The notes under the pieces are model-generated. The model searched no databases. It saw nothing but the letters and a program-made list of their open reading frames with translations, and had not been told where the DNA came from. 64,000 nt of DNA, from contig JBEKZP010000001.1 in NCBI GenBank assembly GCA_049509755.1, forward strand, positions 208,210-272,209, written 5' to 3'. Below, piece after piece: positions 3,560-64,000 of the stretch. The position numbers and the translations under genes were made by a program. Position 1 is the first letter of the stretch; every line of letters begins with the position of its first letter. Source of the stretch: Terriglobales bacterium. Lineage in GTDB: Bacteria; Acidobacteriota; Terriglobia; Terriglobales; Acidobacteriaceae.

Positions 3560-5161
3560 TCACCTCACCCGCCTGAGCCGGCGCCACACGCCTTCCATCA
3601 TCGAAATCCCCATCCAGTGGGTCAGCAGCAGGTAGATCCCACCAAACGGCAGCAACACGCAGGGTCCGACCAGCAGCGGTGAGCGGCCCGGCAACGCGAT
3701 CTCAATTCCGTATCCGGCGGCCGCGGCCAGCAGCGCGGCGAGCCACATTTTCAGCACGCGTGCCGTGGAGTAGGGCACGGTCCCAATGCGGCTCTGCAGC
3801 GATCTGCGCAGCAGGACAAACTCGATCCACCCGGCAATGCCGGCCGACAGCGTCAATCCGGCAACTCCCCAGCGCCGGTCGATGCCGAGCAAGGGCGGCA
3901 GCGGCAGCGCGCAAAAGTAGCCCAACGCCAGCGTGAGCGCGACACGAATTACGGCGAACTTCAACGGCGTGCGCGTATCCCGCAGCGCGTAAAACGCCGA
4001 CGAGTACAGCCGACCCGAGGTCGAGGCCAGCAATCCGACCGCCGATCCCGCCAGTACTCCCCAGACGTAGGTCACGTCGCGGGCGGTGAACTGGCCGGAA
4101 CGGTAGATGGTCGCCACCACCACGTTACCCAGGAAGAGGAACGCCGCCGCCGAGGGGACCACGAAAAAAGCGATCTGCTGAAGTCCCTGCGCCAGTCGCT
4201 GCCGCAGCGCAGTGGCAATCTCCTCGGGGCTGCCCAGGGCGCTCGACATCGCAGGCAGTTCGGCGGCCGACACCGACATCCCGAACAGGCTTACCGGCAG
4301 CGCATAGAGCGTTTGCGCATAGCTGAGCGCCGCCACCGCCCCGGTGGGCAGAAAGCTGGCTAGCAGGGAATCAATGTAAGCGCTGATCTGCACCACGCCG
4401 CGGCTGACAAATACCGGGAAGAAATTCTTCACCACGCTGTGGACGTGCTCGGAACCCAACCTTTTCGGAATCCGCAGGGGACGCAGGAAGCGCAGCACGG
4501 CGGGAAGTTGCACCGCAAACTGCAGCGCGCTGCCGGCCACCGACCCCAGGGCGACCGTCACCGCCAGCCGGGGCTGGGTTTGGTGTCCGCCCTTCCACAG
4601 AAACGCGGCAATAATCGCCGCATTCCACAGGATCGGGGCGGTGTAAGAAAGCAAGAACCTGCGATGGCTGTTGAGAACGCCGAGACACCACGCCGAAAAC
4701 ACCAGCAGCCCCGCGCCCGGAAACAGGACTTGGACCAGGCGGATGGTGAGCAGCCGCTTATCGCCCGAGAAACCCGGGGCGATGGCGGCAATCAGCCATG
4801 GCGCCGCGAATACGCCCGCCACCACCAGCACGGAGGTGATCAGGAATAAAAAGACGAATGTCGCTTCCGCCGTTTCCGAGGCTTCATCGTGGCGCTGCTC
4901 GGCATTCAGCCGCGCATAAACCGGAATGAAGGAAGCGGACAGCACTCCCTCGCCGAACAGGTTCTGCAGGAAATTGGGAATGCGAAAAGCGGCGCGGAAG
5001 GCGTCGGCGGCATCGGAGTTGCCAAAGTAGTGGGCGAAGACGCGATCGCGCACCAGGCCGGCAATCCGGCTGAGGAAAATTCCCAGCGCGACGGTGGCAG
5101 CAGAGCCCCGACCCGCTGATTCCTGTTTTCCGGGCTCTGCGTTTTCCGCGGGCGTGGACAT
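3560..5161 (-). CDS. murJ: Lipid II flippase MurJ/MviN
   Basis: Polytopic membrane protein with the conserved MurJ N-terminus (LGIFLSRIAGLVRDRVFAHYFGNSDAADAFRAAFRIPNFLQNLFGEG). Confidence 0.9.
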   Translation of the reverse strand: MSTPAENAEPGKQESAGRGSAATVALGIFLSRIAGLVRDRVFAHYFGNSDAADAFRAAFRIPNFLQNLFGEGVLSASFIPVYARLNAEQRHDEASETAEATFVFLFLITSVLVVAGVFAAPWLIAAIAPGFSGDKRLLTIRLVQVLFPGAGLLVFSAWCLGVLNSHRRFLLSYTAPILWNAAIIAAFLWKGGHQTQPRLAVTVALGSVAGSALQFAVQLPAVLRFLRPLRIPKRLGSEHVHSVVKNFFPVFVSRGVVQISAYIDSLLASFLPTGAVAALSYAQTLYALPVSLFGMSVSAAELPAMSSALGSPEEIATALRQRLAQGLQQIAFFVVPSAAAFLFLGNVVVATIYRSGQFTARDVTYVWGVLAGSAVGLLASTSGRLYSSAFYALRDTRTPLKFAVIRVALTLALGYFCALPLPPLLGIDRRWGVAGLTLSAGIAGWIEFVLLRRSLQSRIGTVPYSTARVLKMWLAALLAAAAGYGIEIALPGRSPLLVGPCVLLPFGGIYLLLTHWMGISMMEGVWRRLRRVR

Positions 5162-13280: not shown

Positions 13281-14297
13281 CTAGCCTTTTGATTTTATCT
13301 GCACCAGCGGTTTCGTGGGTTCCGGCTGCTCCAGGCGCGAGCGCGCAACGTCGGCAATCGCGGCCAGGAACGCAGGCGAATCGTTCAGCGACTCGGCGCG
13401 CCACAGCCGCATGCCCTGCTTCCCGGCGAACTGCCGGAAGCCGATGTCAATGTCGTACAGCACCTCGACGTGGTCGCAAACAAAACCAATCGGCTGGATG
13501 AACACGCCGCGGTGTCCTTTGGCTTGGAGCGCGAGAATCGTGTCCTCGACCGTCGGCCCGAGCCACGCGCCACCCGACATGCCCTGGCTCTGGAAGGCGA
13601 AGGTCCAGTCGTCGCCGTGGAGCGACGGGACTTCCATGGCGACCATCTCCGCGGTTTCTCTCGCCTGCTGCTCGTAAGGATCGCCGGCCTCGATGGTGCG
13701 GGTTGGAACGCTGTGCGCGGTAAAGATGATGGGCAGGCGCGCGCCCATTTCGTCACCGGCGCGTTTCCAGCCGGCTTGCAGTTTTTCGGCAAAGGCGCGG
13801 ATGAGCAGCGGGTGATCGTGCCAGTTCTCAACAAAGTCGATGGCGAAGGGCGGCTCGCCCAGCGCGCGCCGGTAAAGCCCGACGCTGGTCTGCGAGTTCT
13901 GCGGCGCCAGACAGATGACGACCGCGTTCGTGATGCCGTCTCTCGCCATTTGTTGAACCGTGTCGGCGATGAAGGGCTTCCAATTGCGCATGCCGACGTA
14001 CACCCGCGTTCGAGGGCGAACGCGCTCCAACTCGCGTTGTACGCCATTGGCCTGCTTCATGGTGATTTCCGTGAGCGGCGAGTGGCCGATGAGCCCGTAG
14101 CGATGCTTGATCTCTTCGACGACCGGCGGAGGAAGAGGGCGTCCGGCGATGTTGCGCAGGAATTCCGGGACCTCGTCAGGTGTGTCGGGATTGCCGTGGG
14201 CGAGCAGGAGGACCCCCGTCGATGGTCCCCTCGGCTTCGCTCGGGGCAGGCTCTGGTCGGCGGTCGACGGGGAATTCACTGCGCTTCGCCGAACCAT
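13281..14297 (-). CDS. hemH: Ferrochelatase. The ORF track extends to 14537, but the N-terminal 80 aa are Arg/Pro junk. The start is taken at Met81 and the true start remains uncertain (see 14226-14257)
   Basis: GVLLLAHGNPDTPDEVPEFLRNI...RYGLIGHSPL ferrochelatase N-terminus, and a characteristic length. Confidence 0.8.
   Translation of the reverse strand: MVRRSAVNSPSTADQSLPRAKPRGPSTGVLLLAHGNPDTPDEVPEFLRNIAGRPLPPPVVEEIKHRYGLIGHSPLTEITMKQANGVQRELERVRPRTRVYVGMRNWKPFIADTVQQMARDGITNAVVICLAPQNSQTSVGLYRRALGEPPFAIDFVENWHDHPLLIRAFAEKLQAGWKRAGDEMGARLPIIFTAHSVPTRTIEAGDPYEQQARETAEMVAMEVPSLHGDDWTFAFQSQGMSGGAWLGPTVEDTILALQAKGHRGVFIQPIGFVCDHVEVLYDIDIGFRQFAGKQGMRLWRAESLNDSPAFLAAIADVARSRLEQPEPTKPLVQIKSKG
14226..14257 (-). 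repeat. Copy of the dispersed ~30-nt element at the hemE/hemH junction, inside the annotated 5' end of hemH
   Basis: The minus strand reads gaccagagcctgccccgagcgaagccgaggggac (encoding DQSLPRAKPRG). Confidence 0.65.
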
Positions 14298-61733: not shown

Positions 61734-62969
61734 CTACTTGCCGGCGCTGGCGACCTTGGTGTCGCGGTTCTTCAACACCTCGATGGCGCGCTTGAGTTGC
61801 TCATCGTTCTGCAGACTCCGCTGCTTCTTAGGCTGGTCGGGCGCGCCGGAGTTGTCGTCGTCGTCCGGCAGCACGAAGTCGTCGTTGGTATCGGCGACCA
61901 GGATGTTGGGAGTAATCGCCGTGTCCTGAATCGCCTTGCCGTTGGGCGTGTAGTACTTGGCGATGGACAGGATCAGCGCCGAGCCGTCGGGGATCTCGAT
62001 CACTTTCTGCACCGAGCCGACGCCGAAAGTCTTGTCGCCCAACACGTCGCCGCGTGCGTTCTCCAGGATGGCGGCGGCCACGATCTCCGCCGGGCCGGCG
62101 GTGCCGCGATTCACCATCACCACCAGCGGCAGGCCGGTGACCACCCTGTTCAGGTCGGCGTTGAAGGTCTCGCGCGGGTAGCGCTGCCCTTGCAGATAGG
62201 CGATGATGCCGTGGTTCAGAAACAGGTTGGCGGTGGCGATGCCTTCCTGCTCGTCGCCCTCGGCGCAGTCGCGCAGGTCGAGAATGATCTTCTTCGCGCC
62301 CTTCAGTTGGTCGGCCTTGAGCTTGCTGGCGATCTCCTGCGCCTTGCCCTTATTGAAGGCGTCCACCTTGATGTAGACGATGCCGTCTTCGAAACTCTTC
62401 TCGCTGACGTCGGGAATTTTGACGGTGTTGCGGGTGATGGTGACCTTTTGCGGCTCGGCGCGCCGCGCGCGCACCACCGAGACGTTCACGTTCGACCCCG
62501 GGTCGCCCGCCAGCAGCGACTGGATTTCCGCCAGCGACATCTCGCGCGTCGTGCGCCCTTCAATGGCTTCCAAGATGTCGCTATTCTCGATGCCCGCCTT
62601 GTCGGCCGGGCCGCCGGGGATCACCGAAATCACCGCGCCGTAACCGAAGCGCTTGGAAATCGTGGCCCCGATCTGCCCTTTGGCTTCGGCCTTATGCGAT
62701 CGATACTTCTTGTATTCGGCCGGCGTCAGGTAACTGGAGTTGGGGTCGAGCGATTCCAACAGGCCGTGCAGCGCGCCGTCGGTCACCTGCGGGATGTTGG
62801 GCTCCTCCACGTATTCGCTGCGGATGCGCGACAACACCTCGCTGTAAACGCCGAGCTGGCGATAGGCGCCGTCATTCGACGCCGCGCGCACTCCCAGCCC
62901 GCCGGCGATGGTGAACAGAACGATGGCGATGGAAACCGTCAGGATTACCGCTTTGACCTTCTTGGACAT
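61734..62969 (-). CDS. ctp: Carboxyl-terminal processing protease (S41 family, Ctp/Prc) with a PDZ domain
   Basis: N-terminal TM anchor, PDZ (GAVISVIPGGPADKAGIENSDIL) and an S41 catalytic region (ILDLRDCAEGD...GTAGPAEI). Confidence 0.85.
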   Translation of the reverse strand: MSKKVKAVILTVSIAIVLFTIAGGLGVRAASNDGAYRQLGVYSEVLSRIRSEYVEEPNIPQVTDGALHGLLESLDPNSSYLTPAEYKKYRSHKAEAKGQIGATISKRFGYGAVISVIPGGPADKAGIENSDILEAIEGRTTREMSLAEIQSLLAGDPGSNVNVSVVRARRAEPQKVTITRNTVKIPDVSEKSFEDGIVYIKVDAFNKGKAQEIASKLKADQLKGAKKIILDLRDCAEGDEQEGIATANLFLNHGIIAYLQGQRYPRETFNADLNRVVTGLPLVVMVNRGTAGPAEIVAAAILENARGDVLGDKTFGVGSVQKVIEIPDGSALILSIAKYYTPNGKAIQDTAITPNILVADTNDDFVLPDDDDNSGAPDQPKKQRSLQNDEQLKRAIEVLKNRDTKVASAGK

Positions 62970-63182
62970 GAAACTCCCACGCGCTGCTGATTAGAGCCGA
63001 TTCACTGGTGAGCCAGTGCCTCACATTATACCCGTGTTTTGATGCGGGAACCCTGCCGGACGCTGCCGTTCTTTTCCACGAGGGGACATGGCCCGCAGTG
63101 AAAGTTTGACACTGTTTCCACGTGACTCTTAGAATCGTAAGTGTCCTCGTTGGCCGCGCCCCTGGGCGCGGCTTCCTATGTG

Positions 63183-63230
63183 GCGGTGTAGCTCAGGTGG
63201 CTAGAGCGAGGGTTTCATAAACCTTCAAGC
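63183..63230 (+). pseudogene. Truncated tRNA: the 5' half (acceptor 5' strand, D-arm, anticodon arm with a CAT anticodon) of a tRNA-Met/Ile(CAT). The T-arm and 3' acceptor are missing
   Basis: GGCGGTGTAGCTCAGGTGGCTAGAGCGAGGGTTTCATAAACCTTCAAG resembles elongator tRNA-Met up to the variable loop. No GTTCRA T-arm follows. Confidence 0.55.
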
Positions 63231-63499
63231 CACCTCTGCCAACCCATTGACAAGGCGACAGAAACCCTGCAACCCCAATTGTCACAGTTTCTTAGCTTGT
63301 TGTATTGAATTCAGCCGATCTGTACCGAAATGCGGAGAAATGTCGAAGGGGTCCCCACAAAAGTCCCCACAGTTCCACTGTGCCGAATTCAAACTTTTCG
63401 GCCCGGTTCTTCGAAAAGCCGACTTCCATGATAAGTCTCTGTCAAGAGGGCAAAGGCTCTCCTGACGCGCTTGGGAGGAGCACGGGAACGAACAGTGCC

Positions 63500-63775
63500 C
63501 GAGCACATCCGGTCGGACAACGGCTGATGTTTCAGATCATCGGCGCCATGGCCGAGTTCGAGCGGGCACTGATCCAAGAGCGAGTCAGGGCAGGCTTGCG
63601 GAGCGTTTGCGCAAAGGGCAAACGGCTTGGAAGGCCCCGTCGCGAAGTAGACGCGAACAGAATTGCCGCTCTACGCGCGTCAGGGACTTCCTGGCGGGCG
63701 ATCTCGCGGGAGCTAGGTGCTGGTCTCGCCACTCTGTACCGCGCGGTAGCGGGACGCAGACATGCCGGATGGTAA
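63500..63775 (+). pseudogene. C-terminal fragment of a serine recombinase (resolvase/invertase). The catalytic N-terminal domain is absent
   Basis: GQRLMFQIIGAMAEFERALIQERVRAGLRSVCAKGKRLGRPR...IAALRASGTSWRAISRELGAGLATLYR matches the resolvase dimerisation helix plus HTH. The preceding 60 codons lack the YxRVS...Q catalytic motif. Confidence 0.6.
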
Positions 63776-64000
63776 CTGCTGCGCGGGTAGTTTCCGATAA
63801 GGTGGCAAGATTTTTTCGTTCCATTTCTGGAACAAGAAGTTGACAGCAGTTACCAGTGTCTATGTCGCAGCTATCCTCCCCCTAAGGAGACTCTGATTAA
63901 GTTCTCCACTTTCCACAAGTACTCAAGCTAAAGTGCAGCCAGATGAAGCCTCACAACAAACAGAGGACACTGGCGATGATGACCGGCTTTGAGCGGTACA

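Follow-up and report, generated by a model that had tools for sequence, protein, structure and literature searches.

The last 0.8 kb of the window, as we call the whole stretch of 64,000 nt that was analysed, probably belongs to a mobile element: we read positions 63182-64000 as the attL, or integrase-distal end, of an integrative island that is strain-specific and has inserted in the anticodon loop of a tRNA-Met gene and displaced the 5' fragment of this gene. Several lines of evidence lead to this reading. The break falls exactly at the anticodon arm, an empty site exists in the sister contigs L001, L002 and L004, and the adjoining arm carries a motif as in L109; the layout is that of the island ends in L107, L109, L123, L130 and L137, of which L107 has the same 5'-fragment polarity; and a complete relative of the 5' type exists (L115), with resolvase loci lying often near tRNA genes (30 of 79). 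For the coordinates of the individual features, see Table 1.

On the forward strand, positions 63182-63225 read GGCGGTG TA GCTC AGGTGGCTA GAGC G AGGGT TTCATAA ACCTT and represent a tRNA-Met(CAT) gene of which only the 5' part is there: the acceptor 5' strand, the D arm and the anticodon arm with the anticodon at 63216-63218. After 63225 there is no resemblance to a variable loop, a T arm or a 3' acceptor strand; 63226-63260 had no similarity to the 3' part of the tRNA, and the reading of 63226-63245 as a degenerate tRNA 3' end with a deleted T arm was rejected, as the alignment scores were no better than those of shuffled sequences. ARAGORN, run over the entire window, called only the tRNA-Gln at 1195-1268 and nothing at 63182. 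The first-pass annotation had described this site as the 5' half of a tRNA-Met(CAT) gene without T arm and 3' acceptor, and these results bear it out. Upstream of the fragment, the promoter-like site at 63106-63135 is identical in sequence in the sister strains; judged by its sequence, it is likely the native tRNA promoter, still attached to the displaced fragment. Between this site and the tRNA start, at 63153-63172, lies a perfect 9-bp G+C-rich hairpin, GCCGCGCCC CT GGGCGCGGC, which is kept in all sister contigs.

An exact-sequence lookup of the neighbouring S41 peptidase gene (61734-62969, minus strand) returned 8 contigs. Three sister contigs, L001, L002 (a metagenome-assembled genome from NCBI) and L004, carry an intact tRNA-Met gene of 77 nt at the same position, in the gene order peptidase S41, intact tRNA-Met, DUF7948 gene, and their left flanks are 98-99% identical to that of the window. 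In L001 and L002 the DUF7948 gene region follows directly after the intact tRNA, which represents the empty site. The broken junction, on the other hand, was found 100% identical in L003 (the source-type contig, JGI 3300052918), L005 (JGI 3300044800) and L009 (ENA ERZ27250144), which are three independent assemblies made with two assembler pipelines. Since three sister contigs are intact and three independent assemblies are broken, the broken tRNA allele is a real strain-specific insertion.

The same data bear on the suspicion that the locus is an assembly chimera, or that a complete but unusual, T-arm-less tRNA was mis-parsed. Such an error could be suspected from the Rfam tRNA model, which matched 63182-63241 with 30.2 bits, just above the gathering score of 29, and from the contigs L005, L006 and L008, which end at or near the locus. 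However, a chimera is hard to reconcile with the identical junction in independent assemblies, and the Rfam match skips the T arm, being reached only when the 19-nt block of variable region and T arm is collapsed to 6 nt. The DNA past the junction is unlike a tRNA 3' part, ARAGORN finds no tRNA, and the sister strains carry a normal gene, so that we assign next to no probability to either error. Several contigs end inside or just after the tRNA fragment (L005 at 63307, L006 and L008 at 63210, L007 at ~63227), which suggests that intact and interrupted alleles co-occur in the samples of L005-L008. A second context for the junction, sought by k-mer logic from these contig ends, was inconsistent between contigs and was set aside.

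When the window was aligned with the intact 77-nt gene of L001, L002 and L004, a check similar to one proposed with the initial description, identity extended through 63213 (canonical positions 1-31), followed by a hybrid stretch and then by unrelated sequence. Mismatches to the intact allele occur at 63214, 63221 and 63224 (canonical positions 32, 39 and 42), whereas TCATAA (63215-63220), CC (63222-63223) and T (63225) are kept; 9 of the 12 positions over 63214-63225, after the last fully identical base, still match (binomial estimate, p ~4e-4), and the sequences are unrelated from 63226 onwards. The fragment is the end piece of a real tRNA gene, in which divergence starts in the anticodon loop and is complete past the anticodon stem (63225). 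From the course of this divergence, the crossover may be placed within the anticodon loop (63214-63220). The displaced fragments of related loci end in the same part of the tRNA, at position 38 in L107, 40 in L125 and 42 in L115. An imperfect palindrome extends across the junction (AGGTGGCTAGA...AGGGTTT CAT AAACCTT...TCAAGCCACCT; DNA fold z = -2.5). Its reading as the site of a large serine integrase was rejected, as no such gene is present and the spacing argument is ambiguous. Exact-pattern scans of viral and genome collections yielded no matches either for the junction or for the repeat block described below.

Table 1. Features of the tRNA-Met locus; positions refer to the window unless a contig is named
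Feature	Position	Strand	Remarks
Sigma-70-like promoter	63106..63135	+	TTGACA, 18-nt spacer, TAGAAT; 11/12 matches; ~46 nt upstream of tRNA start
Displaced tRNA-Met(CAT) 5' fragment	63182..63225	+	identical to 63213, 9/12 over 63214-63225
Anticodon loop, putative core/crossover region of attachment site	63214..63220	+	first base differing from chromosomal allele: 63214
Island-derived arm, 295 nt, non-coding	63226..63520	+	G+C lower, 0.49-0.53
Double direct repeat GGGTCCCCACAAAAGTCCCCACAGT	63349..63373	+	GTCCCCACA twice, 12-nt spacing
Resolvase/invertase pseudogene	63521..63775	+	last 84 codons + stop; E-helix and HTH kept
CTAA, possible insertion target	63882..63885		adjoins repeat end; L092 copy flanked by CTAG
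Insertion-sequence-like multicopy repeat, left end	63886..64000 (contig to 64010)	+	terminus GGAGACTCTGATTAAG; ORF from 63943 (MKPHNKQRTLAMMTGFERYTKKT...)
Resolvase leader hairpin in relatives	L107 9570-9640; L109 7338-7410; L117, L123, L130, L137 equivalent positions		
Prim-Pol/PriCT_1/DUF3987 primase island	L092 140-3587; L098 112-3559		

According to the Islander database (Hudson, Lau and Williams 2015), anticodon-centred sites are used by 2083 of 3919 islands and 5' tDNA fragments are found in 159 of 3919; islands that target tRNA genes restore the target gene as a rule, and tyrosine integrases are the sole integrases known to target tRNA genes (PMC4383910). The locus resembles these islands in that a tRNA gene is broken at the anticodon loop and its end fragment stands between the native flank and foreign DNA, in that sister strains have an empty site, and in that the fragment lies upstream of where a whole tRNA is expected. 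It differs from typical Islander islands in an element-derived core with 3 mismatches in 12 positions and in belonging to the 5'-type minority. The initial description had proposed to look at the far side for the 3' end of the tRNA in a second, directly repeated copy; this expectation needs correction, since with a 5' fragment it is a complete, regenerated tRNA that is expected downstream and not a repeat of the 3' end (PMC4383910).

The following course of events would account for the locus. The attachment site of the circular element would consist of a tRNA-like 5' segment on the integrase side, a core resembling an anticodon stem-loop, and an arm in which two 12-nt-spaced direct repeats are followed by the resolvase gene. 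Recombination in the anticodon loop would join the chromosomal promoter and tRNA positions 1-31 to the core and arm of the element, and at the far end, beside a tyrosine integrase, a functional tRNA would be rebuilt from the 5' segment of the element and the chromosomal 3' half. Later, the resolvase gene would have lost its leader and the first ~128 codons, and an insertion-sequence-like element would have landed 110 nt past the stop codon. The data directly show the empty and the occupied allele, where the junction lies and that it is hybrid, the arm motif, the placement and direction of the resolvase, and its decay; the type of the integrase, the size of the island and a regenerated tRNA are what we infer here. 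It has to be counted against this explanation that the regenerated tRNA and the integrase, which define an Islander island, would lie beyond the 0.8 kb of island available: the source contig stops at 64010, 10 nt past the window and inside the insertion-sequence-like repeat.

An insertion at the same site might also have proceeded without regeneration of the tRNA, leaving the gene split and inactive as long as the element is resident. This would be viable if another copy of the gene exists or if excision restores it, and there are documented precedents of elements by which the target gene is inactivated and, when they excise, restored (PMC7192596). The features of junction and arm are the same as under the boundary reading with regeneration, and only ~12 nt of tRNA-like sequence are demonstrably derived from the element. 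Against it, however, stand the rule that tRNA islands restore the gene (PMC4383910), which is followed by the complete relative L115, and the result of a search for a second tRNA-Met copy, which detected none within the 64-kb window. A tRNA with the anticodon CAT is probably needed by the cell; taken together with the persistence of the allele in three samples, this would argue for regeneration, and we regard an insertion without regeneration as improbable.

The arm that separates the tRNA fragment from the resolvase homology contains the motif GTCCCCACA in two copies, which are the sole copies in the 64-kb window and may serve as arm-type binding sites of a recombinase. The whole block GGGTCCCCACAAAAGTCCCCACAGT matched GGGTCCCTCAAAAAGTCCCCAAAGT of L109, situated at a similar offset from the tRNA fragment there, with a score of 31 versus a maximum of 30 in 1000 shuffles, and a degenerate form of the motif was present in 1 of 179 loci. 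Analogous double repeats with 12-nt spacing were observed in the arms of L107, L108, L123, L130 and L137. In the Terriglobia island ends compared here the repeat block lies ~105-190 nt away from the tRNA fragment, and the position of the block in the window fits this range. The likeness of the arms does not go further, which counts against the island-boundary reading: outside the 25-nt repeat block no significant similarity was detected between the arms of the window and L109, nor between the window arm and those of the other five relatives.

A second conserved element of the relatives is a hairpin leader of ~70 nt (GCGCGCCGTG...CACGGCGC), which directly precedes the start codon of the resolvase gene in six of them. 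In the window, 63374-63520 contains no recognisable leader hairpin, and this absence likewise counts against our explanation. The sole Rfam match of the hairpin was SymR, on the opposite strand and below threshold (32.6 bits vs 61). Searches of the arm (63226-63520) against Pfam, PHROGs and plasmid and phage collections gave no matches, and the ORFs there were equally without Pfam or PHROGs match; plasmids and phages, compared with 63212-64000 by BLAST, matched it in the conserved helix of the resolvase only. The arm was also considered as a miniature transposon, and terminal inverted repeats were not found. The initial inventory of the locus was right about the pieces of tRNA and resolvase, and it overlooked two others, the arm repeat (63349-63373) and, from 63886, the insertion-sequence-like end.

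The resolvase fragment itself lies in an ORF (63305-63775) of which only residues 68-106 match the Pfam Resolvase family (profile positions 107-144 of 145), followed by HTH_7. When full-length relatives were used as tblastn queries, only their residues ~130-209 could be aligned, to 63521-63751; what is missing is the conserved leader and, with ~128 codons, the catalytic domain that bears the nucleophilic serine. This agrees with the earlier view of a C-terminal fragment made up of dimerisation helix and HTH, as the relatives align only from residue ~130. The fragment is 72-86% identical to its relatives from Acidobacteria. Its adjacency to the tRNA fragment was correctly recognised at first, yet the distance given then, ~270 bp, has to be replaced by a measured 295 nt (plus strand) to the start of the resolvase homology. 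In the relatives the distance from the tRNA fragment to the resolvase ATG is 236-334 nt. Since the gap of 295 nt is in this range, the missing piece is the leader plus ~128 codons of the resolvase itself.

With the resolvase fragment as query, species-representative genomes yielded 79 loci in Acidobacteria, mostly in Terriglobia. The resolvase gene was full-length in 64 of the 79 copies and truncated or split in 15, and decay of this gene is therefore common. The best 120 database relatives of the fragment (P0002-P0120) are all short, with 69-168 residues, which is partly due to short contigs and frameshifts, as in L010. The closest truncated relatives (P0002, P0009, P0003 and P0011) were set aside, their contexts being unrelated to the window arm.

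A tRNA gene lay within 10 kb in 30 of the 79 resolvase loci, in 22 of these 30 upstream of the resolvase gene and on the same strand; at most resolvase loci the distance was 3.5-6.5 kb, with an integrase gene beside the tRNA. Orphan tRNA fragments were present at many of the resolvase loci. A layout that recurs in L107, L109, L123, L130 and L137 starts with a displaced, anticodon-centred tRNA fragment, from which 240-520 nt of arm lead to an inward-reading resolvase gene. In L109, L123, L130 and L137 the displaced piece is a 3' fragment on the opposite strand, which in L109 derives from tRNA-Asn. In L107, in contrast, it comprises positions 1-38 of tRNA-Lys, a 5' fragment co-directional with the resolvase gene, and the order there is a chromosomal dehydrogenase gene, the tRNA-Lys fragment, a MerR/HTH_17 gene and a full resolvase gene. 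The end of the window shares with these Terriglobia island ends the fragment, the arm with its 12-nt-spaced double repeat and the inward orientation of the resolvase; its repeat block differs very little from the one in L109, and its 5'-fragment polarity is that of L107. Unlike them, the window resolvase is without ~128 codons and the leader hairpin, its arm is not alignable with theirs outside the repeat block, and the MerR/HTH_17 gene of L107 has no counterpart in the window. The one complete relative of the 5' type is the small island of L115, where a 42-nt 5' fragment of tRNA-Leu marks one end of a 5.8-kb island and a tyrosine integrase gene ends 15 nt before a whole tRNA at the other.

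Further arrangements around tRNA genes were encountered among the related loci. The tyrosine integrase ORFs of L121 (4387-5643) and L169 (4586-5854), both on the minus strand, read through the neighbouring tRNA-Met gene in the antisense direction. The integrase C-termini (..RTRTYDLRIMRPSL) are encoded by tRNA sequence, so that the attachment site lies inside the 3' end of the integrase gene. In L099 a whole tRNA-Ser(GGA) is duplicated (3971-4060 and 13535-13624) and flanks an island of 9.5 kb with genes for a portal protein, an S49 protease, PrimPol and an integrase; a full-length resolvase gene starts 1.1 kb past the second tRNA-Ser copy, apparently in a tandem island.

The relatives clarify the role of the resolvase. 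It is an accessory gene that lacks its 5' part and not the enzyme that made the scar, because it is the usual terminal accessory gene in the islands of the relatives and because L115 has a tyrosine integrase beside the whole tRNA. Of the initial interpretation as an integration scar, the presence of mobile DNA at a tRNA gene stands, as the empty site in the sisters demonstrates, whereas the view of the resolvase as the decayed, scar-making integrase has to be given up. Like other small serine recombinases (PF00239 + HTH_7; for instance gamma-delta/Tn3 resolvase and the Hin/Gin invertases), the fragment keeps the C-terminal E-helix and HTH; unlike them, it has no catalytic domain and cannot recombine DNA, and it is not located beside a transposase gene or a recognisable res site. 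A fragment of a recombinase gene near a tRNA junction is reminiscent of elements of the SSV1/Mx8 type, with attP within int, yet here 295 nt of non-coding arm lie between the fragment and the junction. Splitting of the resolvase gene by integration in the SSV1/Mx8 manner was rejected, as in the relatives the gene is complete and equally far from the junction.

The gene order of the window could also be the result of a deletion, which counts against the boundary reading. In a conventional island the order is whole tRNA, tyrosine integrase, several kb of other DNA and resolvase. A secondary deletion that reached from tRNA position 44 into such an island would remove the integrase gene and the 3' part of the tRNA, leave a dead tRNA copy and yield the gene order seen here. 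The starting order is the common one, given the upstream, co-directional tRNA in 22 of the 30 tRNA-bearing loci, usually at a distance of 3.5-6.5 kb and adjoined by an integrase gene. L147 (9617-10270) is a clear deletion relic of an island, in which a complete tRNA-Lys is followed by an 88-residue N-terminal integrase fragment fused directly to a C-terminal resolvase fragment; the tRNA, however, is intact there. The 24-nt repeat of the tRNA 3' end at the far side in L098 is what an island of the 3' type would be expected to have, and a 16-mer resembling the anticodon arm could act as microhomology, for which we estimate ~0.2 sites per 50 kb. Yet the breakpoint coincides with the canonical anticodon-centred site, and the adjoining DNA has the layout of a terminal arm, as regards the offset of the double repeat and the distance and orientation of the resolvase, and not that of an island interior. 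Moreover, tblastn searches for an integrase remnant in 63100-64000 gave nothing significant (best E = 0.07), and the cell would have to tolerate the loss of the tRNA-Met gene. Altogether, a deletion is the main rival reading but appears unlikely to us, and we keep to the island boundary as explanation.

The far side of the locus is known from other alleles. L098, which is 100% identical to L092, originates from the same metagenome as the window contig, though the two may come from different strains. Its repeat end is followed by a Prim-Pol/DUF3987 primase gene and two small ORFs, after which come 24 nt copied from the tRNA-Met 3' end and then the DUF7948 gene. The primase island is a second type of island at the same tRNA-Met, with a T-loop-type site. 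That the far side in L098 ends in a PrimPol island and a 24-nt tRNA 3' copy makes the locus composite, and this too is to be counted against a simple boundary. In L004 (3012-3221, minus strand), 109 nt separate the intact tRNA-Met from a downstream 25-nt repeat of its 3' end. L001 and L002 have neither this repeat nor the 260 nt after it, and what L004 carries may be the smallest trace left by an island that was excised or deleted. The population contains at least four states of the locus, namely the empty site, a small remnant, the insertion of the window on the 5' side and, on the 3' side, a PrimPol island. As several allelic states occur (L098, L004 and others), the tRNA-Met gene is a polymorphic integration hot spot. 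A scan of metagenome contigs with the DUF7948 protein revealed no close relative of the species, the best match being 39% identical.

The repeat that terminates the contig starts 110 nt past the stop codon of the resolvase fragment. Its end is 92-93% identical in L092 (1-126) and L098 (1-98), where it lies next to a different gene. The copy in the window and that in L092/L098 face opposite ways in the same metagenome, and all three contigs break inside the repeat. The terminus GGAGACTCTGATTAAG resembles the inverted repeat of IS5, and the CTAA and CTAG flanks resemble IS5-type targets. Like IS5, the repeat is multicopy and has a conserved terminus in different flanks; its assignment to the IS5 family is one of resemblance only, the comparison covering 125 nt with one end and ~22-23 codons. 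The ~23 residues encoded there had no matches in Pfam, NCBIfam or by tblastn. A DUF772 transposase in L183, considered as a candidate, belongs to a different element.

One might suppose that the resolvase-type serine recombinase is not a passenger and takes part in integration and excision at tRNA anticodon loops, since in the Terriglobia island family the gene always adjoins the attachment arm and the L107 copy is preceded by a MerR/HTH_17 gene. We consider such a role very improbable. If it were true, this would be the first serine recombinase known to act at tRNA genes, and the truncated copy in the window would mark an island that is locked in place.

On its own, the finding adds little: one more island boundary at a tRNA gene, a scar of an ordinary kind in the orientation that is met less often. 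Of modest value is that it records, for uncultured Acidobacteria, the rarer polarity with a 5' fragment, reveals one tRNA-Met gene as a polymorphic hot spot and illustrates that a tRNA-like match just above the Rfam threshold can be a displaced fragment. The island family, which targets tRNA genes in soil Acidobacteria, has an outer-end signature, a 12-nt-spaced double repeat and then a resolvase gene; this signature could help to find the limits of islands in metagenome-assembled genomes with contig breaks at insertion sequences.
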